A stretch of 64,000 bases of DNA from Promethearchaeota archaeon (GCA_048937405.1 JBHLNF010000005.1:192001-256000); one strand, 5' to 3'. Counted from the first letter of the stretch, positions 1-21,600 are shown. Notes: a model not told the origin generated them from the sequence alone. Made by a program: numbers and translations.

Positions 1-1
1 T

Positions 2-280
2 GGTAAACAAATAAATATGGATATGGCAGATTTTGAATTTACGGGTATTGCATATTTTTCAGAATATGGTGTTGAGATTATTAGACGAATATATAATGAG
101 TGCAATTTGACCCATAAGGGAAAATTTCATGAAGCAGATTCATTTCAGAAAGCATCTTTTGTAGATCTGATACAAGAAGTAATAGATAGAGGTTTCAGAG
201 TGGACATTTTGGAAGTTCATAAAGGATGGTTTGAACTCCATAATAAAAAAGATGTTGAGGTAGCTGAAAGATTAATCTAA
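2..280 (+). CDS. C-terminal part of an NTP-transferase (LicC/PntC-like) domain protein, truncated by the window start; possibly the tail of a PEP-mutase-associated protein
   Basis: Frame is open from base 2; EFTGIAYFS and terminal KGWFELHNKKD motifs fit cytidylyltransferase-like domains; sits in a phosphonate cluster. Confidence 0.6.
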   Translation, partial: GKQINMDMADFEFTGIAYFSEYGVEIIRRIYNECNLTHKGKFHEADSFQKASFVDLIQEVIDRGFRVDILEVHKGWFELHNKKDVEVAERLI

Positions 281-304
281 TTTTAAATAAGAGTAGGTTA
301 TAGG

Positions 305-1441
305 ATGAATGAATATATAGGATATGGTTCTATATCGAAGCTTAAATATATTTTAAAGAATGAAAATTTCAAAGATATTTTTCTTATAACTGGAAATTCA
401 AAGTTAGAATTAAACAATATCAATAAAGTTAAAACTATTGTAAAGAAATATTCAAATTTCTTTCATTTTAATGATATTGCTCCAACTCCTTCAGTCTTGG
501 GTATTGAAAAAGCATTAAATTCTTTTAAAAAGAAGAAATATGATTCTATTATTGCATTGGGAGGAGGATCAGTCTTAGATATTGGAAAAAGTGTTTCAAT
601 TTTTTCTACTAATGAAGGAAAAATAGAAGATTATCTTCTAAAAAAAGAAAAACTGAGAAGAAAAGGAATCCCTTTAATATTAATTCCAACAACCTCAGGA
701 ACTGGAAGTGAAGCAACTCACTTTGCTGTTATATTTATTGAAAAAACAAAATATTCTCTGGCAGATCCAATATTAATTTCTCCAAAATATACTATTGTAG
801 ATCCTGAACTAACATACAGTCTTCCAAAAAGAATTACTGCATATACTGGTATGGATGCATTATGTCAAGCGATTGAATCTTATTGGAATATTAATTCTAC
901 AAATGAATCCAAGAATTACGCAAAAAAAGCGATAAAACTCATATTGAAAAACTTATTTAATGCCGTTCACAATCCTGATAAAAAATCAAGATATAGTATG
1001 GCAATTGCTGCACATTTTTCTGGTAAAGCAATTAATATTACAAAAACTACTGCTTGTCATGCTATCTCATATCCTATTACCTCATATTTTAATGTACCAC
1101 ATGGACATGCGGTAGCTCTAACTTTACCATCAATGTTTATTTTTAATTCAAATGCAAATGAAAAAGATATCAATGATCTTCGTGGAGTTGATTTTGTTAA
1201 AATGACAATGAATGAACTCATCTCAATTCTAGGAGTTTCTAATTTTACTGACGCAAAAAATAAAATTAAAAATTTAATTAAAAATATAGGTTTAGAAACA
1301 AATCTAGGAGATTTAGGGATAAAAACTCAAGATGATATAGAAATAATTATAAAAAATGGATTTAATCCAGAAAGAGTTAAAAATAATCCCAGAATTTTAA
1401 CTGAAACTCAATTAAGAGAGATTTTAGAGGATATTAAATGA
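305..1441 (+). CDS. Phosphonoacetaldehyde reductase (iron-containing alcohol dehydrogenase, PhpC-like)
   Basis: GGGSVLD, PTTSGTGSEAT, GMDALCQAIES, TTACHAISYP and PHGHA motifs; near Ppd. Confidence 0.8.
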   Translation: MNEYIGYGSISKLKYILKNENFKDIFLITGNSKLELNNINKVKTIVKKYSNFFHFNDIAPTPSVLGIEKALNSFKKKKYDSIIALGGGSVLDIGKSVSIFSTNEGKIEDYLLKKEKLRRKGIPLILIPTTSGTGSEATHFAVIFIEKTKYSLADPILISPKYTIVDPELTYSLPKRITAYTGMDALCQAIESYWNINSTNESKNYAKKAIKLILKNLFNAVHNPDKKSRYSMAIAAHFSGKAINITKTTACHAISYPITSYFNVPHGHAVALTLPSMFIFNSNANEKDINDLRGVDFVKMTMNELISILGVSNFTDAKNKIKNLIKNIGLETNLGDLGIKTQDDIEIIIKNGFNPERVKNNPRILTETQLREILEDIK

Positions 1442-2154
1442 AAGTATTATTGTTAAACTCAGGTATTGGAAAAAGATTAGCTCCATTAACGAATAACTTA
1501 CCAAAATGTCTTATAAAAATATCAGATAATGAAACTATATTAGACCATCAATTAAAGAGTATAATAAAGTGTGGTTTCACAGAATTTATCATTACTACTG
1601 GTCCATTTGAGGATAAAATCAAAAATCATATTGAAAAATTTTATCCTTCTATTTATGTTGACTATGTAATTAACCCATTATATAACAAAACTAACTATAT
1701 TTATTCTCTTTATTTAACGCGGAATAAAATCAATGATGATGTCCTATATTCACATGGTGATTTAATCTTTTCTGAAAATTTAGTAAAATTATTGCTTGAA
1801 TCTAAGTATAAGGATTGTGTATTAGTAAATAAAGATATTCCACCTCCAGAAAAAGATTTTAAATCAAAAATTCTTGATAATAGAATATTTAAAATAGGCG
1901 TTAATTTGAAAGGTGTTAGTACAGCTTTTTTAGCTCCATTATATAAATTAACAAAAAATTTTATGTTAAGATGGATTCAAGAAATTGAATTTTTCATAGA
2001 AAATAAGAGAGTAAATTGCTATGCCGAAGATGCTTTAAATGAAATTTTAAATGAACTTATTTTAAAACCTTGTTATTATAATGAATTTTGTGTTGAAATT
2101 GATGATTATCAAGATTTAGAAGGAGTTAAAAATTATTTAAACAAATATATATAA
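1438..2154 (+). CDS. Phosphocholine/phosphonate cytidylyltransferase family (LicC/PntC-like)
   Basis: LNSGIGKRL..T...PKCL, NYIYSL, GD and EIDD motifs; ATGA overlap with the upstream gene. Confidence 0.75.
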   Translation: MKVLLLNSGIGKRLAPLTNNLPKCLIKISDNETILDHQLKSIIKCGFTEFIITTGPFEDKIKNHIEKFYPSIYVDYVINPLYNKTNYIYSLYLTRNKINDDVLYSHGDLIFSENLVKLLLESKYKDCVLVNKDIPPPEKDFKSKILDNRIFKIGVNLKGVSTAFLAPLYKLTKNFMLRWIQEIEFFIENKRVNCYAEDALNEILNELILKPCYYNEFCVEIDDYQDLEGVKNYLNKYI

Positions 2155-2170
2155 AAATTTAGATAATTCA

Positions 2171-3316
2171 ATGGTAAAAATGATTGTGTGTGAAGAATTT
2201 ATAAAAATTTTAGAGAAATATGATTTTACTTTTTTTACGGGTATCCCAGACTCAACTTTTAAGGATTTGATGAAATATTTAACTGATAATCCTAATGGGA
2301 ACCTTAAAAATATAGTTGCCTGTAATGAATGTGAAGCAATTGCTATAGCGTCAGGTTATCATTTAGCAACAAATAATATAGGAATTGTTTATATGCAAAA
2401 TTCTGGATTTGGAAAAACTGTTAACCCTCTTACATCTTTATGTGATCCTGAAGTATATTCAATACCTATCCTTTTAATGATTGGATGGCGGGGAGAACCA
2501 AACATAATGGATGCCCCACAACATAAAAAAATGGGAATAATTACATTACCTATTTTGGAAACTCTCCAAATACCTTATGAAGTATTGGAACCTAATCTAC
2601 AAAAGATAGATAAAGCATTAAATCACGCATTAGACTATTTTACCAACAAAAAAGGACCCTATGCTTTAATATTTCGGAGGAATTTCTTTCAAAATTATGA
2701 AATGAAGACTTCTTTAACAAATAATTATCATTTAACTACAAGGGAAGTTATTCAGATAATTTTAGATAGTTTTTCTACTGATGAAATTGTAGTTTCTACT
2801 ACTGGTTATATATCGAGAAGAATTTTTGAATATAGAGAAAAAAATATAAAAGATCATCATAAAAGTTTCTATAATATAGGTTCAATGGGATGTGCTAGCT
2901 CTATTGGATTAAGTATAGCTCTACAAAAACAAAAGAATAGGGTTATTGTTTTTGATGGGGATGGTGCTGCTATAATGCAAATGGGGGCATTTTCAACTAT
3001 AGGAAAATATGCACCTTCTAATTTTGTTCATATAATTATAGATAATGAAGCTCATGAATCTACTGGGTGTCAACCAACAAATTCAGCTAGTATAAAATTT
3101 ATAGATATAGCTAGAGCATCCAATTATAAGTGGAATGTTAAGGTTGAGAGAAAAGATGAATTATATGAAGTTTTAGATATTATTCAAAATCGAAATGGAC
3201 CAATTTTAATTGTAATAAAAACAAAGATTCATTCTGAACCAGATTTGAAAAGACCAGATAAACTTCCAAGGGAATATAAAAAAGACTTTATGAGGTATCT
3301 ATCTAAATTAAACTAG
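2171..3316 (+). CDS. aepY: Phosphonopyruvate decarboxylase (ThDP-dependent)
   Basis: FFTGIPDS, YMQNSG..VNPLTSL, IGWRGEP..DAPQH, GSMG and DGDG motifs. Confidence 0.85.
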   Translation: MVKMIVCEEFIKILEKYDFTFFTGIPDSTFKDLMKYLTDNPNGNLKNIVACNECEAIAIASGYHLATNNIGIVYMQNSGFGKTVNPLTSLCDPEVYSIPILLMIGWRGEPNIMDAPQHKKMGIITLPILETLQIPYEVLEPNLQKIDKALNHALDYFTNKKGPYALIFRRNFFQNYEMKTSLTNNYHLTTREVIQIILDSFSTDEIVVSTTGYISRRIFEYREKNIKDHHKSFYNIGSMGCASSIGLSIALQKQKNRVIVFDGDGAAIMQMGAFSTIGKYAPSNFVHIIIDNEAHESTGCQPTNSASIKFIDIARASNYKWNVKVERKDELYEVLDIIQNRNGPILIVIKTKIHSEPDLKRPDKLPREYKKDFMRYLSKLN

Positions 3317-3459
3317 TGATTTATAAACTAAATATTAAAATAATTTTCTTCATGAAATTTTTATTTATTATAAAATTTCATTAGATAATTTAAAAACTCA
3401 TGATTAAGTTAAAATTTAAAATACTAATTAATTAACCAGAAAAAAGAGTTAAATGATTT

Positions 3460-4431
3460 ATGACACTTGAAGATAGAAGAATTTTAGTTACTGGTGCTGC
3501 AGGATTTATTGGGAGTAATTTAACTGATAAATTACTTAATTCAGGTGCAAATGTAATTGGTATTGATAATCTATTTAATGGGCGATTGGAAAACCTAGAT
3601 AAGGCTTTTAATAATAAAAATTTTCATTTCTATAAAGGAGATATAAGGGATTTTAATTTTTTACTTGACATTTTTAAAGATATTGATATAATTTTTCACG
3701 AAGCTGCATTTACTAGTGTCCCTCAGTCAGTTATAATGCCCGAATCTTGTAATGATGTTAATGTAAATGGTACTTTAAATGTGTTAAATGCTGCTAGGAA
3801 AAGAGATGTTGAAAGAATTATTTTTGCTTCGAGTTCAGGAGTATATGGAGATACTCCAACATTACCCAAAAAAGAAAGTATGCCAAGAATACCAATATCT
3901 CCTTATGGTGTAGCTAAATTAGCTTGTGAAGCATATATGCAGGCTTTTTATCATGTTTATGGTTTAAATACGCTTTCTTTAAGATATTTTAATGTTTTTG
4001 GACCTAGACAACGAGATTCTCCATATAGTGGGGTAATTGCAATTTGGCTTGGAAAATTAATCAGTAATAACAATTTAATAATATTTGGTGATGGAGATCA
4101 ATCAAGAGATTTTACATATATTAAAGATGTTATTCAAGCAAATATCTTAGCAGTTGAAAATACAATTTCAGGAGAAATATTTAATATTGGTGCGGGGGTT
4201 CCAATAAAAGTATTAGATCTTGCAAAATTAATGCTAAAACTCACAAATAAAGAGGATTTAAAAATCATTTTTGATCCTCCAAGACCTGGAGATATAATGC
4301 ACAGTTATGCTGATATTTCAAAAGCTAAAGAGTTTTTAAAATTTCAACCAAAATACAATCAAGAACAAGGTCTAAGAGATTACTTTAAATGGTATTTTGA
4401 AAAATATAAGATTAATTTAATTTTAAATTAA
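3460..4431 (+). CDS. NAD-dependent nucleotide-sugar epimerase/dehydratase (extended SDR)
   Basis: GAAGFIGS, YGVAK (YxxxK) and LRYFNVFGPRQ. Confidence 0.9.
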   Translation: MTLEDRRILVTGAAGFIGSNLTDKLLNSGANVIGIDNLFNGRLENLDKAFNNKNFHFYKGDIRDFNFLLDIFKDIDIIFHEAAFTSVPQSVIMPESCNDVNVNGTLNVLNAARKRDVERIIFASSSGVYGDTPTLPKKESMPRIPISPYGVAKLACEAYMQAFYHVYGLNTLSLRYFNVFGPRQRDSPYSGVIAIWLGKLISNNNLIIFGDGDQSRDFTYIKDVIQANILAVENTISGEIFNIGAGVPIKVLDLAKLMLKLTNKEDLKIIFDPPRPGDIMHSYADISKAKEFLKFQPKYNQEQGLRDYFKWYFEKYKINLILN

Positions 4432-4445
4432 ATATAAGTACAACC

Positions 4446-6731
4446 ATGGAAATTTTTAGAAGTAAATTCAAAAATATTCTAATTTTTCTATATTCAAGAA
4501 TTCATTTAGTTGTCTTTTTAATTTCAGTTACTTCTCTTATATTCATTTTTTTTAAAATTATTAATTTAGAATTAATTTTAGGATTTTCAGAAAATTTGTT
4601 TTTTGCCTCAGTCTTTCAAACATTGGTTATTTTAAGTACAATTTATACTATTTTATTTTTACCGACTTATCCAGTTTTTTTCATAATTTTTAAAGAGAAG
4701 TCTTTCAATTATTTAGAAAAATTAAGTTTAACTATAGTCATAAATTCTGCTTTTTACATTCTCATGGGATATATGGGATTTCTCATTAGAATTCCGTTAA
4801 CCAAATTCTTTTTCTTTTTTTCAGCATCAATTTTTTTTTTTTTAATAATTGGATATATTATCATTTTCGAATCTAAGAAAAATCTATATGTTTTTATCAG
4901 ATCAAAAGATATTTCTACTTTAAAGAAAGAGAATTTAAGTATAATTTATTTCATTAAATATCTCAAAAATTTATTCTCTTTTAATATTATTTTATTAATA
5001 GTTTTCTTATTTCTTATTTGTATTTTAAATATCGTCAAAGTTAATAATTTTATTGGAACTGATCCTTGGCTTCATATCCTTAATAGTACAGTTCTTACAG
5101 ATCTTAATATTTTACCTTTGGAAGGATATCATGGTACGATGGGATTAAACATATTTGAAGGCGTAATCTATTTCTTTTCTGGAATAGAACACATTCGTAT
5201 ACCCAGTTATTTTGTATTTTACACATTCTTTGTGTCAGGTTTAATTTTTTATAATATTTGTATGAGAATTTTTAAAGATCAAAATTTAGCCATATTTGGA
5301 GTATTTCTTTTAGAATTTTCTTCTTTAGGTTTCTCCGTAATGATGATTCAATATTGGCCTTCTGGTTCAGCATTAATTAAATGTTTAATGATTTTTTTCC
5401 TTTTATATGTAAGACTCGAGAATTTTATTAAATCAGAACGTCCTTCTAAAAGAACTATTTTCTTAAATATATATTTTGATTATGCATTAATTACATTAAT
5501 TTTTATCAGCTCAGTTCTCACCCATGATGTAACAACGTTATTCTTCTTGTTTTCTTTTCTATGGTTATATTTAATTTATTTTTTAAGAGATTATAGGAGA
5601 GGATTTGATTTTATATTCTTATGCTTATTATTAGTCTTATTTCTTGTTTTTTCTATTTTTGGAATAGGTGAAGGACATTACTGGTTTATTGAATCATTAG
5701 AAATTTCATGGTACTATCTTGTTTTAGGGATTTTAACAGGTGGTCCAATATTGATAATTATTTTGTGGAAATTTAGTAAATCAATTAATTTTACTAATGG
5801 AAAATTTAGTGCTACAATTAAGGGAGAAACTAGTATCCATTATAAAAAAATTGAGGAGAAGATAATAATTCCGCTAATTTCAAGTGTTATATTCTTATCC
5901 CTTATGATTTTTTTAATACTAGACAATATTTGGATGAATATAGGAATAATAAATATCCTTTATATGATTGAGATAATAACGATAAGTAGTTTCGCTATTT
6001 GGGGGTTAATTATCTTCCAAAAAAAACAAAGTGGTAAAGCATTGTTTATCTGGGGAATAGGATTATTATTATTCCTATTAACTGGATTTGTATTTGATTT
6101 CTTTGTATTGAATAATATGATTTGGCAGAGAATACTCTATTTAATCCCTCCTATTATTGTCTTCGGATTTCTAGCGTATATATATAAACTCATTAAATTA
6201 AATTCTTTTAGAACATTTCAAAAGAAATTTGTATTTTTGTTTATTATATTATTTTCACTATTTGTTTCTTACTTTTATGAATCAAAATCTTTTGAGATTT
6301 TTATATTAAAAGATAGAGAAATTAGCTCAATTCAATGGTATTCTAATAGGACAAATAATAAAAATGTTATAATTACTGAAGTTGGCTGGAGTCATGTTTT
6401 TAGATATTATGATTATCTTTATGGTAATAATTCAGAACCACTTCCTTATGATCAAAATTTTTATTTTCTAAAATCCAAAATAGATCTTTTTCCTCCAAAT
6501 AATCACTACAATGAAAGTGAGGTAAATATTTTAGAGTATATTAAAGGCAAATATAATACTGATGTCTTTATCCTATTTGCAGACGATTATATTATTAACA
6601 GAGGTTTTGATTTATTTGGTCACTTAAGTGAAGAAGAGAGAGAACAATATTATTCTCTTAATTATTTAAATAAAATTTGCGTTTCAAGCACAGAGGAGGG
6701 AAGAGAAATTCCTTTATATTGGGTTATCTAA
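4446..6731 (+). CDS. Large polytopic membrane protein, possibly a GT-C-fold glycosyltransferase
   Basis: Many hydrophobic helices, GTDPWLH loop after a TM helix, soluble C-terminal domain; follows glycan genes. Confidence 0.5.
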   Translation: MEIFRSKFKNILIFLYSRIHLVVFLISVTSLIFIFFKIINLELILGFSENLFFASVFQTLVILSTIYTILFLPTYPVFFIIFKEKSFNYLEKLSLTIVINSAFYILMGYMGFLIRIPLTKFFFFFSASIFFFLIIGYIIIFESKKNLYVFIRSKDISTLKKENLSIIYFIKYLKNLFSFNIILLIVFLFLICILNIVKVNNFIGTDPWLHILNSTVLTDLNILPLEGYHGTMGLNIFEGVIYFFSGIEHIRIPSYFVFYTFFVSGLIFYNICMRIFKDQNLAIFGVFLLEFSSLGFSVMMIQYWPSGSALIKCLMIFFLLYVRLENFIKSERPSKRTIFLNIYFDYALITLIFISSVLTHDVTTLFFLFSFLWLYLIYFLRDYRRGFDFIFLCLLLVLFLVFSIFGIGEGHYWFIESLEISWYYLVLGILTGGPILIIILWKFSKSINFTNGKFSATIKGETSIHYKKIEEKIIIPLISSVIFLSLMIFLILDNIWMNIGIINILYMIEIITISSFAIWGLIIFQKKQSGKALFIWGIGLLLFLLTGFVFDFFVLNNMIWQRILYLIPPIIVFGFLAYIYKLIKLNSFRTFQKKFVFLFIILFSLFVSYFYESKSFEIFILKDREISSIQWYSNRTNNKNVIITEVGWSHVFRYYDYLYGNNSEPLPYDQNFYFLKSKIDLFPPNNHYNESEVNILEYIKGKYNTDVFILFADDYIINRGFDLFGHLSEEEREQYYSLNYLNKICVSSTEEGREIPLYWVI

Positions 6732-7521
6732 AGATTTCAAAATCAGCTTCGATAAAAGAACGTAATTTATCTTTTAATATAGTAGTTTTATCTCGTTCAA
6801 TCTTAATTAATTGTGGTAATTTACCTGTATGTCCCACTTTATTTTCTCTCGAAATAAAAGTCCCGATAACTCCCTCAATGTCATTTGCTTTCTCCAATGC
6901 TTTCTTTATAGATTTTTCAATATCTGGCCCTTTAACAACATTACAAATTTTAGTGGCTGCCGCATCTGCTAGAGCACAACTCTTGGCAAAAACAGTGACA
7001 GCATCAGCTTGTCCAAAGCTGATAGCATGACCAACTGTGGCAGAACTTGTTCCTATTCCAATTGGACAATCTTTTTTTTTTATCATAAATCCTAAATTCA
7101 GATTTAATTCATTTTTCCCTGCATATAATGCTATTTTAATAGGTTCTTCAGAATCAACTGCAATTTCACCACCATTTTCAACTAAAGCAACTTTAAAAGA
7201 AGATGGGTTAATATTTTTATAATTATTGTTTGAGTTCATTGCTTCAAGCATCAAATCTGCTAAAGCTCCTGCTACAGAAGCCATTGGTCCGACATCACAT
7301 ATTTCTGCGACTTCTACCATATTATTAATAATTCTTAAGTCAGTATTAACTTTAATCGGAGAAAATGAATTGAGAAAATCTTTATCGTTTTTAATATATT
7401 GCTCTAATAATTCTCGGTGATAATAAAAACACTCTTTTGCCCTTAAAATGGCGTTCTTAGAATCTGATATGATAGTAACATCCGATTCTTTTTCAATAAA
7501 ACGAGTTTTGAAAGTTTTCAA
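6724..7521 (-). CDS. UPF0280/ApbE-like family protein
   Basis: VGPMASVAGA, ENGGEI, GTSSATVGH and ADAAAT motifs. Confidence 0.85.
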   Translation of the reverse strand: MKTFKTRFIEKESDVTIISDSKNAILRAKECFYYHRELLEQYIKNDKDFLNSFSPIKVNTDLRIINNMVEVAEICDVGPMASVAGALADLMLEAMNSNNNYKNINPSSFKVALVENGGEIAVDSEEPIKIALYAGKNELNLNLGFMIKKKDCPIGIGTSSATVGHAISFGQADAVTVFAKSCALADAAATKICNVVKGPDIEKSIKKALEKANDIEGVIGTFISRENKVGHTGKLPQLIKIERDKTTILKDKLRSFIEADFEIFR

Positions 7522-7634
7522 TTATAATTATAAGATGTAATTATTAAATTAGTAATTATATAAGGAGTCTAAGAACTAAACAAATATAAATAAATTCAAT
7601 TTTATTATTAAATTAAAAACTATCTCTCTTAATT

Positions 7635-8126
7635 ATGAATCAAGTTAACTACGAGGAAATAATTTCTCAATTAAAATCTGACCTAAATGCGGAATGTGCT
7701 ATAGCAAATAAGTATGGAATTATTTTAGGATCACTAATAAAAGAATTCGGTAAAGATAAAGTTATTCCACAAGCAATATTATCATTGATTTCTAATTCTA
7801 AAGAAATTGCTAACGAATTAAACTTAAATAAGATAAATTCTTTTGCATTGGAAGCACAAGAGTACAATTATTTGTTTACATTTAGTGATGAATTGATATT
7901 AATCTCAAAATTAGATTTAAATGTTAATTTAGCAAAATTCATGCCAAGTATTAGTGTTTTTTTAAAAAAACTAAGTATGAGCGTAAAAGAAGAAAAGATT
8001 ATGGAATTTTCTGTCTTTGATTTTTCAAAAGAAGTATCTAAAATAGAAGAAACAATAGAGAAAGAAAAAGTTAGGAAAAATAAATATTCTATTATTAAAG
8101 ATTTAGTAAAACATATCTCAAATTGA
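7635..8126 (+). CDS. Hypothetical protein with a roadblock/profilin-like N-terminal domain
   Basis: Helix followed by CAIANKYGIILGS beta-hairpin; co-oriented upstream of a small GTPase; fold inferred. Confidence 0.45.
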   Translation: MNQVNYEEIISQLKSDLNAECAIANKYGIILGSLIKEFGKDKVIPQAILSLISNSKEIANELNLNKINSFALEAQEYNYLFTFSDELILISKLDLNVNLAKFMPSISVFLKKLSMSVKEEKIMEFSVFDFSKEVSKIEETIEKEKVRKNKYSIIKDLVKHISN

Positions 8127-8167
8127 TTTAACAAATTAATAATTATTAATAATCTTGGTGAAACATC

Positions 8168-10045
8168 ATTTTAAGGCAAGTATTTATTTATAGAAATAGT
8201 GAACTATTGTACTATAGACATTTTGGAAAAGCTCTGAAACAAAAAGTTTTAGATATTCTAGTAGAAGAAATAACTAATGAAACTATTATAAGAAGTGATT
8301 CAAAAATTGATTTTCATGACTATTATAAGTTTAGAGTTGCATATATTACAGAAAAAAAAAATGATTTAATATTTTTATTTGTAACAAGTTTAACTGACAA
8401 ATTCGAAAATATAAAAAAGGAATTGGAAAAATGCAAGAATGAATTTCTGAATTTATTTGAGGATATACTACAGCATCGATATGACGCTAAAACTTTTGAA
8501 GTTTTTGATCCCACCATTGATTCTATCCATAGAAATTTACGTCCTAAAATATCTTTGGTTGGTTTTTCAGGAGTTGGAAAAACAACAATAACTAAATTAA
8601 TTAAAGCCGATGAAATACCTATGCAACACATACCAACTATTACGGGGGATATAGCAACTATTAGAATTGGGAAACTACATTTTCATTTATGGGATTTCGC
8701 TGGTCAAGAACAATTTAGTTATTTATGGAATAATTTTATAAAAGGTAGTGATGCAGTTCTTTTAATTACTGACTCTACATTAGAAAATGTTGAAAAAAGC
8801 AAATATTTTCTTGAATTAATAAAAGAACAAGCCCCTAATGCTCAATCTGCTGTAATTGGTAATAAACAAGACTTAAAAAACGCAATGAATCCAGTTCAAA
8901 TTGAAAATGTTTTGAGATTAAAAGCATACTCAATGATTGCACTTGAGCCTCAAAATCGTGATAAAATGATACAAATAATTGCAGATGTTTTAGAAATGAG
9001 TGCAGAAGTTTCACCATTATTAAAACCTTTGCTTGAAAGAGATAAATTAACTGAAGAAGCCGTAAATGCCGTAAAAAGTGCGGATTTTGATAAAGCTGCA
9101 TTTTTGTTTGATAAAATTAGTGATTTATGTATAGATTTAGGAGATGATTCTTTAGGACGAGAATTTTTTGAAAAATCACAAAAAATAAAAGAGATGTTAA
9201 AAAAGGTTGGTCCATCTCCACCGACTCAAGCTGTATCTACCGATAAAAAAGAACCAGAAAAAATAATAGTTCAACAAACCACAATAAAACCAGAACCACC
9301 CATATTACCTCCTGAAGATACAAAAAAAATTGAACAAACAATAGAAATAATGAAAAGTGAAGAAACTTCAGGACTGTCCAAATCAGATATGAATGAAAAA
9401 GTATCCGAACCAGTTACAAAAATTCCTGAGGAAACAGAATCATCTAAAGAAATTATTATTCCAAAAGAAAAAATTAGTTTAAAATTGAATCCAGAAGATT
9501 TTTTGGTAAAATCAAGACCAAAAACTGTAGAAATTGTTCCAGAAGATGCAAAATCAAAATTAAAAATGTCAAATTTAGCACAAACAAAACCCACCGAAAA
9601 ATCTAATGTCTTAACACCTGTTTCACCAATTAAATTAATGGAACAAAAACAAAAAATAAAGCCACCTCCTAAAACATCTAGTATCTCAAGAGAGCCATTA
9701 ATTTCTGTAGAAAGCAAAATCTCAACAAATAAAATATCTTCAGTTGAAAAAGAAATATCAACAAGTGCTATTGAAGAAAAAACAGAAATTCCATCCAAGC
9801 CCGATAAGAAAACGCAAGAAACTCAAGTAATTGAAAGTAATCAAGCAGAAAGTTTGAAGAAATCAATATTAGATCTAAAAATAAAAAAAGCGAATTTAAC
9901 AAAGATGGCTCTTGATTTCGATATGAAGGAACTTACGGGTGAAATTACATCAGAAGAGTTAAACGAAAAAAAAGCAAAAATTAATGAGTTAATTCAAAAA
10001 GTTGATAACGAAATTCAAGATTTACAAAAACTTTTGAATACTTAA
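8168..10045 (+). CDS. Longin-like domain + Arf-like small GTPase + helical region + Pro/Lys/Glu-rich linker + C-terminal coiled coil; probable ATT start
   Basis: GFSGVGKT, PTI, WDFAGQ and NKQD motifs; frame extends to ATT at 8168 (ILRQVFIYRNSELLYYRHFG) just after an SD-like GGTGA. Confidence 0.8.
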   Translation: MLRQVFIYRNSELLYYRHFGKALKQKVLDILVEEITNETIIRSDSKIDFHDYYKFRVAYITEKKNDLIFLFVTSLTDKFENIKKELEKCKNEFLNLFEDILQHRYDAKTFEVFDPTIDSIHRNLRPKISLVGFSGVGKTTITKLIKADEIPMQHIPTITGDIATIRIGKLHFHLWDFAGQEQFSYLWNNFIKGSDAVLLITDSTLENVEKSKYFLELIKEQAPNAQSAVIGNKQDLKNAMNPVQIENVLRLKAYSMIALEPQNRDKMIQIIADVLEMSAEVSPLLKPLLERDKLTEEAVNAVKSADFDKAAFLFDKISDLCIDLGDDSLGREFFEKSQKIKEMLKKVGPSPPTQAVSTDKKEPEKIIVQQTTIKPEPPILPPEDTKKIEQTIEIMKSEETSGLSKSDMNEKVSEPVTKIPEETESSKEIIIPKEKISLKLNPEDFLVKSRPKTVEIVPEDAKSKLKMSNLAQTKPTEKSNVLTPVSPIKLMEQKQKIKPPPKTSSISREPLISVESKISTNKISSVEKEISTSAIEEKTEIPSKPDKKTQETQVIESNQAESLKKSILDLKIKKANLTKMALDFDMKELTGEITSEELNEKKAKINELIQKVDNEIQDLQKLLNT

Positions 10046-10224
10046 GGAAATAATTTATTTAATATTATTGTATTACTTTTTTAATTATTAGATTTAAAAA
10101 AAAAACCTTCTTTTATTAATATTTATATTATCAATAAATACTACAAATATGTATATTAGAATAGAATATAAATAACAAGAATTTATGATTACCTCTTCAG
10201 CATGGATGATGTCTATCTAAAAAA

Positions 10225-11097
10225 TCATAATAATCTCTTTAAATACTCATCGGGTACATTTGCTTCTCCAATTGTAATTTCTTTTTTTCCTCCATGATAA
10301 TCTGATCCTCCTGATTTAATTAAGTGAAATTTATCCGCAAGTTTTCTAAAATACTCTGGATAATACTTTTGAGCCCAAGATGCTTTATCGGTCTTATAGA
10401 ATGGTCTATTCTTTGCATAAGTATATTCTATTTCAATACCTTTAATTCCTGCTTTAATACAGGCTGTAATAAACTTTTGTTTATTTTGGATCTTATAAAT
10501 TCCAGGATGTGCTAAAATAGGGATACCTCCAGCGGATTCAATTAATTCAATTGATTCCTCTAAATTTAGCTCCACTTTTCTATCGACAAATGCTGCACCA
10601 CCAATGCTAATCATACGGAATAGATCATCTTTCGACTTTCCAATAATTTTTTCTGGATTATTATTTATCATAACTTCGACTATATGGGGCCGTCCTACGA
10701 CTTTACTCCCTGCTATTACTTTTACTTCTTTAAAAGAGATGTTATATTCAAATTCAGTTCTTAATCGTTTACAAATTGCTTTTTTTTGTTCTAGTCTTCC
10801 ATTAATTTGTTCACTTATCGTTTTTATTAATTTATTTGAGGAGTGATCTATATTTAATCCAATAATATGAACATCAATTAATTCCCTAATTGGTTCATGC
10901 CTAATTGAAATTTCAATACCAGGAATTACAATAATTTCTTTTAATTCTCCATATGACAAAAATTCTTTAACACCATCTATAGTATCATGGTCTGTAATTG
11001 CTATTGCCTTTAATTTCTGATTTAGAGCTTCTTCAATCAATTGTGAAGGAGTTAGTGAACCATCAGAAGCAGATGAGTGTAAGTGCAGATCGATCAT
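10225..11097 (-). CDS. PHP domain phosphoesterase (TrpH/YciV-like)
   Basis: DLHLHSSASDG, AITDHD, LAHP and GGSDYHG motifs. Confidence 0.9.
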   Translation of the reverse strand: MIDLHLHSSASDGSLTPSQLIEEALNQKLKAIAITDHDTIDGVKEFLSYGELKEIIVIPGIEISIRHEPIRELIDVHIIGLNIDHSSNKLIKTISEQINGRLEQKKAICKRLRTEFEYNISFKEVKVIAGSKVVGRPHIVEVMINNNPEKIIGKSKDDLFRMISIGGAAFVDRKVELNLEESIELIESAGGIPILAHPGIYKIQNKQKFITACIKAGIKGIEIEYTYAKNRPFYKTDKASWAQKYYPEYFRKLADKFHLIKSGGSDYHGGKKEITIGEANVPDEYLKRLL

Positions 11098-15632: not shown

Positions 15633-18600
15633 TTGCAAAATCCAGAGGAATTAGCTCAGGAAGCTTTAAAATATTTAGATATCGCACAAAAACTTGAAGA
15701 AGAAAAAGAATTTGAAAATGCAATTTCGCAATATCAACAAGCTGCTGATTTTCTTAAGCAAAGTGGATTTTTAATGCATAGAGTTCAGGAAATTTACGAT
15801 AGAGTAAGTGAATTGAAAGATTTTCTACAGAAAGAAAAGCTTTATCAACAAATAGAACATAAAACTCAAAGTGTACAATTGCAAGAACGAGGATTCGCTT
15901 TATTAGACAGAGCTAAAAAATTAGAATTTGATGGTCTCTTTGAAGATGCTATTCAACAGTATTCATCTGCAATTCAATTACTAAGTCAAGCTGGTTGGTC
16001 TGAAACCCAACTATTTGAATTAAAAACAAAAATTAACCGTCTTTCTCAAGAATTTGATAAAAGAAAAACAACCCTAGAACCACAAAAACAAATACCTGAA
16101 TCACAGAGTCCCCCCATACAATTAATTCAGGATGAAAAACCTCAAATTGTTGGAATGTTTGGCCAGAAAAGTAGTATAGAAAAGGAAGAAGTTATAAAAC
16201 GTTTTAGAGAAAAAAGAAAATATGAAGAAAATATTCAAAATCAAGCGTTTGAACATATTGATGCGGCAAAATTATTTGAAAAAGATAAGAAATTTGATGA
16301 TGCGATATTGAATTATGAGAAAGCCATTGGTTTATTAACTTCCATTGGTTGGACCATTCAAATCCAAAATATCCAATCCATAATTGAAAAACTCAAAAAA
16401 GATAAAATAAATTTCGAATCTTTTCAAGTTAAACCTTCTACAACTTTAGAAACTACTGACATTGAAGAGGAGAAAGTTATATTAGAGAAAAGAGCAAAAT
16501 TAGCCAAAGAGAAATTAAACAAATTTGAACTGAAGAAAAAACATGAGGAACAAGTACAAAATGAAGCCTTCAATTTGATAGATATTGGCAATAGATTTGA
16601 AAGAGAAAATAAGTTTGATGAAGCAATTGAAAAATTTGAACAGGCAATTCAATATTTTAAATCTATAGAATGGGATTCTTATGTACATCCCATTAAAGGC
16701 TTTATTAATCAAATAAAAGAGAAGCAGGAGAGAGAGAAAAAAGCGGAAAAATTAATTGAAAAGAGACAAAAAGATTTAACCATTCTTCAAGATTCGATAT
16801 ATTTAAAGCAAAGAGAGCAAATTTTCAAATCAGCAAAAGAATTAGACAAGAAAAGAAGAGAATTTGAAGAAAAAACAAAAGTTGATGCAAAGAAAGAAAA
16901 AGATCTCTTTGGAATATTAGATAAGGCGGATAAAATTTTAAAAGAGAAAAATTTTGATGATGCTATAAATGAATATCAAAAAGCTTTTTCTATTTTAAGC
17001 GATTTGGGTTCTGGATGGGAAACTTATACATCCATGATAAAAAATACTATTTCTAATGTTGAGAAATTAAAAAATTCTTACCTTACTAAAAAACTTGATG
17101 AGCAAAAGAAATTAGAAGAAAAAGAACGTGAAGAAATTGAATTTCAAAAGCAAATTTTAACTCAATTAGATAAGGAGCGAAGCCAATTAAAAGAGAAAGA
17201 AATTATTATCAAAGATCATGAAGAGGAAATTAAGCATTTTGAACAACGTAAAAAAGTTGGATTTGAGTACTTAGATTCTGCCATGGATTTCCTGATACAA
17301 GGTAAATATGAAGAAGCTATATTAGCATATCAAAATGCTGCCAATATTTTTGCCGAAATACAATGGACGGAGGAGATTCCTTTAATTGAAGTATCAATAC
17401 AAGAAGTTGAAGAATTGCAGAGAACTCAAAATATCATCGAGCAGAGGAAACTAAAAGATGCTATTGAACGTCAAAAGAAAGAGGAAGAGTTTCAAAAACA
17501 AGTTAATAAATATTTAAGGCAAGAAAGGGAAAAATTAAAGAAAAAAGAAGTTGAATTAATGGAACGGGAAAAGATGGTAAAATATCAAGAAGAAAGGAGC
17601 ATTGCAGGATTCAAATTACTAGATCAAGCTCAAGACAATTTAGAACAGGGAAATTTTGATGATGCCATTGAGATTCTAAAATATGCCATAAATTTTTTCG
17701 CTGATATTAATTGGCAGAATGAAATTAATCTAATACAGAATTCCATTATAGAAATTGAAAATAAAAAACGAGAAGCTGTAATTCAAGATCAAATTAAAAT
17801 ACAAGCAGAAATTGAACGAGAAAAGCAAGAAAGACTATTTCGGGATTATGTTACAGGGGAAATGAAAGCACAACAAGAGAAATTTGAAAAAAGAGAAATT
17901 ATTTTAAGAGAAAGAGAAAAAGAAATTGCTTTTCGGGAAAATAGAAAACAAGAAGCTTTTAACTTACTAGAGACAGCACAAGATCTTCTTTTAAATGGGA
18001 AGTTTGATGATGCTCTTGAAATTTATTATAATATAGCGAATATCTTTGCACAAATTCAATGGAATGAAGAAATTTCAATAATTCAAGAAGCAATTCAGAA
18101 TATAGAAGAAAGAAAGAGAGAGAATGAAATAAATAAACAAAAATTAATGCAAAAGTCAATAGAAAAAGAAACTGCTGATAAAGCTTTTATTGAGCAACTT
18201 AGGTATCAAAGAGGGAAGAAACGAGCTGAAATTTTGAAAGAGAAAGAACAAATTGAAAAACAAAAACAGCTTTCTGCTCAAAATTTGGTAAAACAACAAA
18301 AAGCATTTAAATTGATAGAAGATGGAGAAAATCTTATCGAAAAAGGAATTTTTGATGATGCAATAAGTAATTATAATGAAGTTATAGAAATTCTGAAAGA
18401 AATTGGTTGGGAAGAAGGATATCTCTCCCTATTACGTGACAATATACGATCTTTTAAAGCAAAGAAAAGGGATTATGAAAAAGAAAAACAAAATGAATTT
18501 GAAATTAAATTAAAGCAACAAAAAGAAGAAGAATTATTTCAAAAAAGAATAACTGAATATATGAAAAAAGAGCAGGAAAAAATTCAAGCTAAAAAAATTG

Positions 18601-21600
18601 AGATTCATCAAAAAGAAGATTTGTTAAAAAAAATGGAAAGCCGAAAATTAGAAGCATTTAAGGCAATGGAAGTTGCAGATAAGTTATTAAATGAAAGTGA
18701 TTATGATGGAGCTATCGAGAATTATATTCAAGCAGAGTTGATATTAAATGAAATTAATTTTCCAACTAATGTTATTAGAGATATAATTCAAACCATTCAA
18801 GAGAAAAAAAGAGAAGAAAACCTAAACAAGATGAAAGAATTAGAACAAAAATATAGAAAACAACGTGAAGATGAACTCTTTCAAAAACAAATCTTGGAAA
18901 GAATAAAATTAGAAGAACAAGAAATGAGGGAAAAGCAAGAAAATCTATTGAAACAAGAGCAATTGAGGATCATAGAAGAACAAAAAAAACAAGAGGCATT
19001 CAATATATTAGATGACGCTAAAATAGGAATTAAAGAAATGAAGTTTGATGAAGCAATTGATTTATATAATAATGCCAAAAAGATATTTCTAGAAATTCAA
19101 TGGGAAGATCAAGTTAATTTAATTGATAAAGCTATTCTTACGATTGAGAATAAAAAAAGAGATACAGAAGTACAAAAACAAAAGAATCTAGAAAATAAAA
19201 TTCAGCAAGAGCAACTAGAAGTTACTTTCCAAAGAAATCTTGTTAAGGAAATGGAAATTGAACGTAAAGAATTAAAGAAAAGACAAATAAGTCTTAGAGA
19301 AAGAGAAAAAGAACTCATTTATAGAGAAAAAAAGAAAGAAGATTCATTTAAACTATTAGATCAAGCACAGGATTATCTTTCACAAGGCAAATTTGATGAA
19401 GCAATAGAACTTTATGAAAATGTGGCAAATATATTTGCTCAAATTCAATGGACTGATGAAATTCCAATCATAAATAAAGCTATACAGGATATTGAAAATA
19501 AAAAGAGAGAAAGAGATTTAATAAAACAAGAAAATTTTCAAGAGATAATAAAAAAGGAAAAATCTGAACAAGAGTTTATGGAAAAAATAAGGGATCTGAA
19601 GGAAAAGGAAAAATTAAAAGCTCTTGAAGAAAAAGATTCAATACAAAAGCGAGAATTGAGTATTTCTCAAAATTTAATCAAGCAAGAAGAAGCATTTAAT
19701 TTGATAAATCAAGGATATGATTTACTTAATCAAAAGAATTATGATAAAGCATTAGAAAATTATCAAAATGCAATAACTATCCTTACTAAAATAGGATGGA
19801 CCCATGATTATTTAAAACTTCTTAAAGATGCTGTAAAAGCCATTGAAATAAGAAAGATTGATGTTGAAAAAGAGAAAGTGCTTGAAAAAGAATTATTTAT
19901 GAAACATCAACAAGAAGAAGAACAGTTCCAAAAGAAAATAACAGATAGTATGAAAATTGAACAGAAAAGATTACAAGCAAAAAAAATTGAAATTCAGAAA
20001 AAAGAACAATTAAAACACGTAATGGAGAGTCGTAAAGAGGAAACCTTTAAAACTATGGAATTGGCTGAAAATTATTTTAATCAAAAACAATATGATAAAG
20101 CAATTGAACAATACCGCCAAGCAGAGTTAATTTTGAATGAAGTTGGCTTTCCAACTAAAGTAATTAGAGAAATGATAAATAAAATTCAAAATAAAGAGAG
20201 AGAAGAATGGCTAAATAGTCAGAAAGATCTAGAAAATAAACATCAGAAGGAGAAAGAAAATTATGAATTTCAATATAAAATCACAGAAAGCATTAGATTA
20301 GATGAAATTAAGTTAAAAGAAAGAGAAAATAAAATTCAGAGACAAAGAGAACTCCAAAAATACATGGAAAAAAGAAGGGAAGACGCCTTTAATCTTCTCG
20401 AAGAAGCAGAAGGATTCATGAAACAATCTCAATATGATAAATCACTTGAATATTATCATGCCGCTGAATTAATATTAAATGAAATTGCTTTTCCAACAGA
20501 TTCGATAAGGGATTTGATTTTAAAAGTTCAAAAGAAGAAACGAGAGTACCAACTGCAAAAACAGAAGGAATTAGAGCAAACTATTAAAAGGGAAAGAGAG
20601 GAATGGAATTATCAACAAAAGATAGTTAAGGAATTACAAAATGAAAAAGAACGATTGAAAGTAAAAGAAATAGAGGTATTAAAAAGAGAAGAATTGAAAT
20701 CAAAATTAGAGAAAAGAAGAGAGCAAGCATTTAAGATATTAGAGCAAGGAGAGGGCTTCTTAAAAGAACAAAATTATGATAATGCGATAGTCTGTTATAG
20801 AAGGGCAATGCAATTTTTAAAAGAACTCCAGTTTCCAACAGATTCTATAAATAATATGATAATTAAAGTTAATAAATTGAAAAAGCAAAAAGAAAAAGCA
20901 GAACGTTTAAAATTTGAAAAAGAACTTGATAGAATCGAAGAAGAAAAAGCCTTAGAAGTTTTAGTAGAAGAAAGAAAGAGACAAGAAAGGGAAAAAATGG
21001 AAGCGCAACAAATAGCACTAAAAGAACGAGAGAAAATTATCCAAGAAAAAATGAGTGTAAGAGAATCGGCATATTCTCTTTTGGAAGAAGCTGGGACTTA
21101 TTTAAAACGTCGAATTCCAAACTACAATGAGGCTATTTCATTATATATTCAAGCACGGCATATTTTAGCGGATAATATAGGATGGGAACCTGAAATTAAT
21201 AATTTGAATATATTAATTAAAGATTTACAGCAAGAACAAGCTAATTTCCTCAATAAAAAGCAATTAGAGGAACAAGCTCGTTTACAACGTCAAAATGAAT
21301 ATGCCTTATTTCAAGAAGAAGTTAGAAAAAGAAGGTTAGAAAAAGAAAAATTAAAACGGGAACAAGAAAAACAATATCGCGAGTTACTATATAAAAGAAA
21401 ACATATTGAACAAATTAAAAGTGAAGGATTAAGACTCATTGATGAAGGGAAAAAAAATGCAAGGTATCATGAATTCGAAAAAGCCTATGATAATTTTGAA
21501 GATGCAACTAAAAAGTTTAGAGAGATTGATTGGAAAGAAGAGATAAAATATATTGAGACTGAAATTAAAAATACAAAAATATTAGAAGAAAAAGTAAGAA

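Follow-up and report, generated by a model that had tools for sequence, protein, structure and literature searches.

A 64,000-nucleotide stretch of DNA from a Loki-type Asgard archaeon of the Promethearchaeota (C18:192001-256000, i.e. these positions of contig C18, JBHLNF010000005.1, in assembly GCA_048937405.1; hereafter the window) opens within a four-gene operon with a predicted role in phosphonate biosynthesis. The operon (C18:190580-195316) encodes, in this order, a phosphoenolpyruvate (PEP) mutase (PepM) fused to a nucleotidyltransferase (NT)-like domain, an Fe-type alcohol dehydrogenase (Fe-ADH), a free-standing NT of 238 amino acids (aa) resembling LicC and PntC, and a phosphonopyruvate decarboxylase (Ppd). 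Its downstream two-thirds make up the first 3.3 kb of the window. We consider it likely that this locus directs the synthesis of 2-hydroxyethylphosphonate (HEP), its activation with cytidine monophosphate (CMP), and its transfer to a surface glycan, and that the genes form an accessory module, present in some genomes and absent from others, of a Promethearchaeota glycan island. The assembly comprises 4.47 Mb in 29 contigs and is rated 100% complete; the G+C content of the window is 24-31%.

When the whole assembly was searched with TIGR02320, a single PEP mutase exceeded the cut-off (C18:190631-191476); its reading frame continues into the window. The initial annotation, made from the sequence of the window alone, had pointed to the region just upstream as the place for a pepM gene, and the gene lies there on the same strand. 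It occupies C18:190580-192280, starts 1420 bases upstream of the window, and encodes 566 aa; an ATG nine bases after a GTG was taken as the start because the orthologues are 566 aa long. The fusion protein reached 339.3 and 341.5 bits with TIGR02320 (cut-off 319.55) and stayed below cut-off for the related models of phosphonopyruvate hydrolase and methylisocitrate lyase (TIGR02321, 157.6 vs. 374.4 bits; prpB, 97 vs. 354 bits). PF13714 covers aa 21-281 and PF12804 aa 324-427. At aa 132, the protein carries EDKKFPKRNS, an instance of the EDKxxxxxNS motif that distinguishes PepM from other isocitrate-lyase-family proteins (PMC6697681). The open reading frame (ORF) at 2-280, previously labeled an NTP-transferase fragment, is real and represents the tail of this fusion; taken alone, the fragment has no family match. 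Public records of Promethearchaeota metagenome-assembled genomes (MAGs) name the fusion "phosphoenolpyruvate mutase".

The decarboxylase, which carries both thiamine diphosphate (ThDP) domains on one chain, scored 419.4 bits with TIGR03297 (cut-off 312.5). It is 48% identical to the Ppd of a second Asgard cassette type (see below) and 35-37% identical to bacterial pepM-linked Ppds. The gaps among the four core genes measure 24, -4, and 16 bases, a spacing that indicates an operon, and the Fe-ADH is translationally coupled within it. An Fe-ADH adjoins PepM/Ppd in about 17 Asgard and 14 bacterial loci. No Asgard locus with sufficient sequence lacked it, not even where the gene order differs (PepM-NT, Ppd, ADH, NT), as in L025 and L027 (our numbering of the compared loci). 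Above cut-off, the whole genome contained no transaminase of the PhnW/AepZ type for 2-aminoethylphosphonate (AEP). Because of this absence and of the operonic, conserved Fe-ADH, the pathway was assigned to the HEP branch, in line with the initial annotation. Ppm (PEP mutase), Ppd, and Fe-ADH without a competing enzyme define this branch, which accounts for 8.5% of 434 ppm neighborhoods (PMC8942020). In characterized systems, HEP is made by Fe-ADHs of the PhpC type, CMP-HEP by Fom1, and CMP-AEP, for surface tailoring, by PntC (PMC8942020, PMC6697681).

All three NT domains of the locus, i.e. the fused domain, the 238-aa NT, and a 307-aa NT encoded upstream, have pneumococcal LicC as their closest solved relative, which fits the CMP activation of the phosphonate already proposed in the initial annotation. 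For the 238-aa NT, the best solved relatives are LicC (1JYK, E = 4.5e-9) and Treponema PntC (6PD1); the 307-aa NT also matches 6PD1. The PntC/LicC signature, GXG(T/S)RX4-8PK (PMC6697681), is retained in the 238-aa NT as GIGKR-X8-PK, with Lys at the T/S position, and in the 307-aa NT as GPSTR-X8-PK. The 238-aa NT is also an orthologue (37-41% identity) of the N-terminal NT domain in bacterial NT-NT-PepM triple fusions. Because the signature is kept there and absent from the PepM-fused domain, cytidylylation of HEP was assigned to the 238-aa NT, which on sequence grounds is the best candidate for a HEP cytidylyltransferase. The 307-aa NT has an N-terminal extension of about 53 aa and is paired with a transporter of the major facilitator superfamily (MFS), GlpT/PgtP family (C18:188127-190399). 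This pair is intact in L068, a locus that has lost the core genes, and absent from the cassette-bearing loci L028, L032, and L066, a distribution that fits a separate uptake-and-activation unit. The pair may have an independent, salvage-type role.

Genes encoded upstream on the same strand are, in order, those for a glycosyltransferase (GT) of family GT4, a homologue of cytidine diphosphate (CDP)-alcohol phosphotransferases, a 501-aa sulfatase-fold protein, the 307-aa NT, and the MFS transporter; still further upstream follow a Wzx-like flippase, a second GT4, and a GT2. The synteny of PepM, Ppd, Fe-ADH, and NT within an island of GTs, flippase, and a membrane protein of the GT-C fold was counted in favor of surface decoration with a phosphonate. 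The proposed pathway would comprise six steps: (i) PepM would convert PEP to phosphonopyruvate; (ii) Ppd would convert phosphonopyruvate to phosphonoacetaldehyde and thereby pull the unfavorable mutase equilibrium forward; (iii) the Fe-ADH would reduce phosphonoacetaldehyde to HEP; (iv) the 238-aa NT would form CMP-HEP from HEP; (v) an upstream CDP-X-using transferase of the CDP-alcohol phosphotransferase family would place the phosphonyl group on a surface glycan, or possibly a lipid, perhaps assisted by the cytoplasmic sulfatase-fold enzyme of the Ser/Thr type; and (vi) the acceptor glycan would be assembled by the GT2 and GT4 enzymes, flipped by the Wzx-like protein, and handled by the GT-C protein. 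For steps (i) and (ii), the model scores show the predicted activities at equivalog level. Step (iii) rests on the conserved operon context and the lack of an AEP transaminase, and step (iv), as predicted, on family resemblance and signature motifs. We infer steps (v) and (vi), as well as the choice of a glycan over a lipid as the target.

Two proteins of the genus were considered as candidates for the transfer step, a His variant of the CDP-alcohol phosphotransferases and a cytoplasmic, Ser/Thr-type sulfatase-fold protein. The former is a membrane protein encoded about 4 kb upstream; its match to PF01066 (25.1 bits) lies just above the cut-off of 22, and its closest solved relative is AF2299. 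The latter (501 aa) has no transmembrane (TM) segments. Its structure was predicted with confidence (predicted template modeling score, pTM, 0.83), and the model matched both YejM periplasmic domains and S1 sulfatases with E-values of about 1e-15; the fold search discriminated only weakly between YejM/LtaS-like proteins and true sulfatases. Asp9, Ser47, and Asp188-His189 are invariant and Thr48 is nearly so, and the CxPxR formylglycine motif is not present in the protein. Within the genus, the sulfatase-fold protein occurs in 7/7 pepM-positive and in 2/14 pepM-negative genomes. In other lineages, the cassette has different neighbors: in L025, from another genus, the core adjoins a TagF-like, CDP-glycerol-type phosphotransferase, and in L003, which carries the second Asgard cassette type, a LicD/Mf1-like phosphotransferase gene. 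Three unrelated families of CDP-X-using transferases thus stand beside the cassette in different lineages, as a CMP-activated phosphonate donor would predict.

Two alternatives concern the chemistry of the core. If the decarboxylase were a sulfopyruvate decarboxylase (ComDE), the locus would serve coenzyme M or sulfonate chemistry; Ppd is homologous to ComDE, and the protein gave sub-threshold matches to the ComE (124.9 vs. 221.5 bits) and ComD (76.5 vs. 147.95 bits) models. However, it passes the Ppd equivalog while failing both Com models, and it shares an operon with a bona fide PepM. Moreover, this non-methanogenic Asgard genome holds a separate, split ComD/ComE pair elsewhere on the contig (C18:19586-20583, 172 kb upstream of the window) with the reverse pattern: both proteins exceed the Com cut-offs (203.9 and 246.9 bits) and fail the Ppd model (103 and 155 bits). 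To the genome's own ComE and ComD, the Ppd is 33% and 30% identical over half-length alignments. The reciprocal scores contradict the ComDE assignment, which was rejected as hardly credible, and uphold the Ppd label of the initial annotation. The product could also be AEP, formed by a transaminase encoded elsewhere, with another role for the Fe-ADH. AEP is predicted in 56% of ppm neighborhoods (PMC8942020) and is the commonest surface phosphonate, and a class-V aminotransferase of this genome weakly resembles PhnW-AepZ (169 bits). Yet this best match falls far short of the cut-off (360.8 bits), scores higher on the BhcA model, and is encoded on another contig; an aminotransferase adjoins the core in none of the loci examined, whereas the translationally coupled Fe-ADH is kept in all Asgard loci examined. 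With no PhnW/AepZ-type enzyme above cut-off, the AEP branch was rejected as quite improbable.

Two further alternatives accept HEP as the product and differ in its destination. HEP might become a phosphonolipid head group, if the adjacent enzyme of the CDP-alcohol phosphotransferase family either transferred it from CMP-HEP to a lipid alcohol or joined CDP-archaeol to the hydroxyl group of HEP. The position of the PF01066 protein, its relation to AF2299, and its resemblance to the NCBIfam model of archaetidylinositol phosphate synthase would suit such a role, and there is a precedent in the eukaryotic CDP-alcohol phosphotransferases, which build phosphonolipids from CMP-AEP. The NCBIfam score (47.8 bits) is, however, far below the cut-off of 180, and the PF01066 gene is missing from the cassette-bearing loci L028, L032, L066, and L025, the last of which has the TagF-like transferase, of glycan or teichoic-acid type, as its partner. 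In addition, the module always lies within a glycan island with GTs, flippase, and GT-C protein, so that a lipid destination appears unlikely. A secreted small-molecule phosphonate, made in a fosfomycin-like manner via transient CMP-HEP and exported by the neighboring MFS transporter, would match the parallel between the fusion, Ppd, and Fe-ADH and Fom1, Fom2, and FomC, as well as the GlpT-family gene directly upstream. But this transporter belongs to the organophosphate:phosphate antiporter (uptake) family and is intact where the core is deleted, the surroundings are a glycan island, and the roughly 14 kb on either side contain neither a radical-SAM methyltransferase nor an epoxidase, a FomD-type hydrolase, an ATP-grasp, or another tailoring gene. 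An antibiotic cluster, of the fosfomycin or another kind, was discarded, as no radical-SAM, oxygenase, or other tailoring genes turned up in the 14 kb before the window or in its first 12 kb; a secreted product is very improbable.

Several observations nevertheless weigh against transfer of CMP-activated HEP to a surface glycan as the function of the locus. At the level of CMP activation, the NT-like domain fused to PepM (C18:191530-192280) lacks the Arg in its loop, which reads AAGEDPEF-EIPK and is 5 aa shorter than the GXG(T/S)R signature loop. This Arg-less loop is kept at >=80% (i.e. at least this level) across 110 fusion proteins, from Asgard archaea and including some annotated as Thermoplasmatales, Aenigmarchaeota, and Chloroflexota. 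In PntC of Treponema denticola (Tde-PntC), alanine at Arg15 or Lys25 leaves <10% activity (PMC6697681), and judged by its sequence the fused domain may be no canonical cytidylyltransferase. The Fe-ADH, for its part, stays below every NCBIfam equivalog cut-off, including TIGR03405 (PsrA; 197.7 vs. 423.7 bits). Because the bacterial pepM-linked ADHs fail this model as well (135-145 bits), it is too narrow to decide the function. The Fe-ADH also departs from the canonical Asp-His-His-His metal site: the second metal-ligand His is replaced by Gln (GMDALCQAIE; GMDALxQAIE) in 17/17 Asgard pepM-linked Fe-ADHs. The same Gln occurs in 6JKO, the closest solved structure, whereas the bacterial pepM-linked ADHs keep His. 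Together with the 27-40% identity between the Asgard enzymes and these bacterial ADHs, the variant suggests that the Asgard Fe-ADH may have been recruited independently.

The transfer step meets similar difficulties. In the CDP-alcohol phosphotransferase homologue, the motif reads DEVDGEVAR...GIYYDEIGH; with reference to D1xxD2GxxAR...GxxxD3xxxD4, the first three Asp residues are kept and the fourth is His in 6/6 orthologues. The gene is, as mentioned, missing from several cassette-bearing loci. Ten pepM-positive genomes from other genera of the family yielded no match to the sulfatase-fold protein, and the protein's candidacy as a universal partner of the cassette was dropped for this reason. 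There is also no LicD-type transferase in this locus. Possibly, Promethearchaeota install HEP through uncharacterized transfer enzymes, and the Arg-less fused domain has another regulatory or catalytic role; we regard this combination as doubtful.

The logic of the predicted pathway is that of the bacterial phosphonyl-tailoring (Pnt) pathway of Treponema denticola, Atopobium rimae, and Olsenella uli (Rice et al. 2019, PMC6697681), in which a phosphonate is made, activated with CMP, and transferred to the envelope. Common to both are a PepM with an attached PF12804-type domain, Ppd, a cytidylyltransferase of the LicC kind, and a gene context of cell-surface glycans. In contrast to the bacterial pathway, the Asgard locus belongs to an archaeal host, has an Fe-ADH (for HEP) instead of an AEP transaminase as branch enzyme, encodes a CDP-alcohol phosphotransferase homologue and a sulfatase-fold protein in place of a LicD-like transferase, and lacks the GXG(T/S)R loop in the fused NT-like domain. 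The early steps of fosfomycin biosynthesis by Fom1-Fom2-FomC of Streptomyces wedmorensis (PMC6697681, PMC8942020), which yield HEP and CMP-HEP, the products also predicted here, likewise involve a protein that unites NT and PepM, together with Ppd and an Fe-ADH. The domains are arranged the other way round, however: Fom1 combines an N-terminal PF01467 domain with a C-terminal PepM, whereas PepM is N-terminal in the Asgard protein and the fused domain is PF12804-like. Furthermore, the Asgard locus has a second, free-standing NT, lacks Fom3, Fom4, and FomD, and lies in a glycan island rather than in an antibiotic cluster.

The locus also resembles the HEP-type ppm neighborhoods (PMC8942020), which combine Ppm, Ppd, and Fe-ADH without an aminotransferase and for which a HEP conjugate on an extracellular polymer is predicted. 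It differs from these in its anaerobic Asgard host, in the lack of MpnS or another HEP-consuming oxygenase, and in the Gln-variant subgroup of its Fe-ADH. HEP-type products have been isolated only from Nitrosopumilus maritimus (a methylphosphonate adduct) and Stackebrandtia nassauensis (a HEP-exopolysaccharide) (PMC8942020). A bacterial triple-fusion cassette (L034-L047) provides the same set of four activities and, like the Asgard one, contains two NT domains. In the Asgard locus, by contrast, the PF12804 NT is encoded separately, PF01467 is lacking, and the opposite end of PepM carries a divergent PF12804-like domain; the PepM domains of the two cassettes fall into separate, well-supported clades.

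Our literature search combining Asgard or Lokiarchaeota with pepM, phosphonate, or phosphonopyruvate found, in the library searched, no paper on phosphonate synthesis in Asgard archaea. Bacteria are known to carry out the core chemistry, and public MAGs already contain automatic annotations of the genes. The locus departs from known systems in its domain order, the kind of NT that is fused, the presence of a separate canonical NT, the Gln variant of the ADH, and the candidate transferases. In marine systems, phosphonates form a sizeable pool of organic phosphorus whose sources are poorly known, and to our knowledge the sole producer outside bacteria, among archaea, with an isolated product is Nitrosopumilus. 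Loki-type Asgard archaea are abundant in anoxic sediments and have a syntrophic, protrusion-based lifestyle, and their surface chemistry is almost unknown. If Loki-type archaea have HEP-decorated envelopes, they would represent a further, anaerobic source of carbon-phosphorus compounds, and their surface chemistry would include a phosphatase-resistant anionic group. For the phosphonyl-transfer step, the locus supplies natural presence, absence, and deletion variants together with several candidate enzymes. Should uncharacterized transferases or a non-canonical fused domain prove real, they would fill the open step of phosphonoglycan biosynthesis, namely what transfers the phosphonate.

PepM above cut-off was detected in 23/301 sampled genomes of the phylum, 18/68 of the family, and 7/21 of the genus. 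The phosphonate cassette is not rare in this lineage, nor among archaea; about a quarter of the sampled family genomes carry it. The nearest loci bear the title of Promethearchaeota or Promethearchaeia MAGs, except for one Odinarchaeota and one uncultured archaeon. Many independent studies contributed these loci, which speaks against contamination during binning. The Asgard-type host of the initial annotation agrees with these neighbors, and the window also codes for Arf/Roc-type GTPases. Core gene order is kept in about 18 Promethearchaeota loci. A natural deletion variant was found in L068 (GCA_048885925.1, JBHLLG010000060.1; a 3.9-Mb assembly), which has no PepM match. In this locus, a frameshifted remnant of Ppd residues 284-380 (10360-10812) stands alone between the MFS gene and the epimerase gene. 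The deleted block comprises PepM-NT, Fe-ADH, NT, and the first ~283 Ppd codons, whereas the CDP-alcohol phosphotransferase homologue, the sulfatase-fold protein, the 307-aa NT, the MFS transporter, the epimerase, and the GT-C protein are intact. In view of this block loss, the four core genes behave as one unit.

The nearest bacterial PepM domains are 47-51% identical and occur in PF12804-PF01467-PepM triple fusions, followed by Fe-ADH and Ppd, from Lachnospiraceae, Oscillospiraceae, Selenomonadales, and Synergistota (the loci L034-L047 mentioned above). A second Asgard cassette (L003-L006, from other Asgard families) has a Fom1-like PF01467-PepM fusion of 433-439 aa with Ppd directly after it. 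In a tree of PepM domains, the fusions with a C-terminal NT (Asgard, Thermoplasmatales, Aenigmarchaeota, and Chloroflexota) formed one clade with 100% support, and the bacterial triple fusions grouped with the second Asgard type in the other. The tree came from a quick search with midpoint rooting and a biased sample and names no donor. As far as these sequences go, the topology supports the existence of two or more separate lineages of the cassette in Asgard archaea.

The features at the beginning of the window are listed in Table 1. An ORF check recovered all six co-oriented reading frames of the initial annotation. The Ppd and epimerase genes are 143 bases apart, and the intervening sequence is AT-rich. 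The phosphonate module begins about 6.5 kb before the window and ends at position 3316; 3460-6731 belongs to the backbone of the island.

Table 1. Features at the 5' end of the window (positions counted from its first nucleotide).
Feature	Position	Strand	Basis or remark
PepM-nucleotidyltransferase-like fusion, 3' end (last 92 codons)	1-280	+	whole-assembly TIGR02320 search and upstream reading
Group III Fe-ADH	305-1441	+	PF00465 and PF25137
LicC/PntC-like NT, 238 aa	1438-2154	+	NTP_transferase/NTP_transf_3, PF00483/PF12804
Phosphonopyruvate decarboxylase Ppd, single-chain ThDP enzyme	2171-3316	+	TIGR03297, PF02776 and PF02775
NAD-dependent sugar-nucleotide epimerase/dehydratase, TviC/GalE-like	3460-4431	+	PF01370
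GT-C-fold membrane protein, 761 aa, many TM segments	4446-6731	+	no Pfam match; structure model
AbpE-like/PRK04334 protein	6724-7521	-	3' end overlaps 3' end of GT-C gene by 8 bases
163-aa ORF	7635-8126	+	conserved backbone
Arf/Roc-type GTPase, 612 aa	8207-10045	+	conserved backbone
PHP-domain protein	10225-11097	-	conserved backbone

The epimerase scored 214 bits with PF01370; its best NCBIfam match was TviC (229 bits, below cut-off). Congeneric genomes without pepM retain it at 70% identity, next to the GT-C gene. For the 761-aa protein, an AlphaFold model was obtained (mean predicted local distance difference test score, pLDDT, 76.8; pTM 0.83). Foldseek ranked GT-C families first but with weak E-values, and the model was therefore aligned to the full PDB with VIA-align. 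The highest scores were those of AglB (Z = 16.6 over 436 aa), STT3B (15.9), ALG12 (15.3), and ArnT (13.9); the top 20 were all GT-C, followed by a drop to Z of about 7. The label "GT-C-like" of the initial annotation is thus borne out at the level of the fold. Orthology to AglB/STT3 was ruled out, as neither WWD nor W.D.G occurs anywhere in the protein (the motif being WWDxG) and neither PF02516 nor any other Pfam family matched. The family is restricted to Asgard archaea and annotated as hypothetical; within its GTDPWLH element, T205, D206, and H210 are invariant.

A phosphonate-specific transferase function of the 761-aa protein was rejected as well. The protein was present in all pepM-negative congeners checked (5/5), and more distant family members (43-45% identity) lie in glycan loci without pepM. 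The initial annotation had coupled the phosphonate genes to glycan genes. This holds insofar as the locus is a glycan island, but the epimerase and GT-C genes are backbone genes that are also present in pepM-negative relatives. The order Arf-GTPase, 163-aa ORF, AbpE-like protein, GT-C, and epimerase was identical in two of the five pepM-negative congeners. One of these, for which enough upstream sequence was available, has another cassette upstream; it encodes a UDP-GlcNAc 2-epimerase, GT4s, a flippase, a methyltransferase, and a protein of the phosphodiesterase family. This glycan island is variable but conserved at one edge, and the phosphonate genes form an optional module of it. The backbone gene order at 6724-11097 is the same in pepM-negative relatives.

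In L066, a Promethearchaeota relative, two PF00685 sulfotransferase genes (7960-8868 and 17841-18743) flank the phosphonate cassette and the GT-C gene, an arrangement that hints at glycans carrying sulfate as well as phosphonyl groups.

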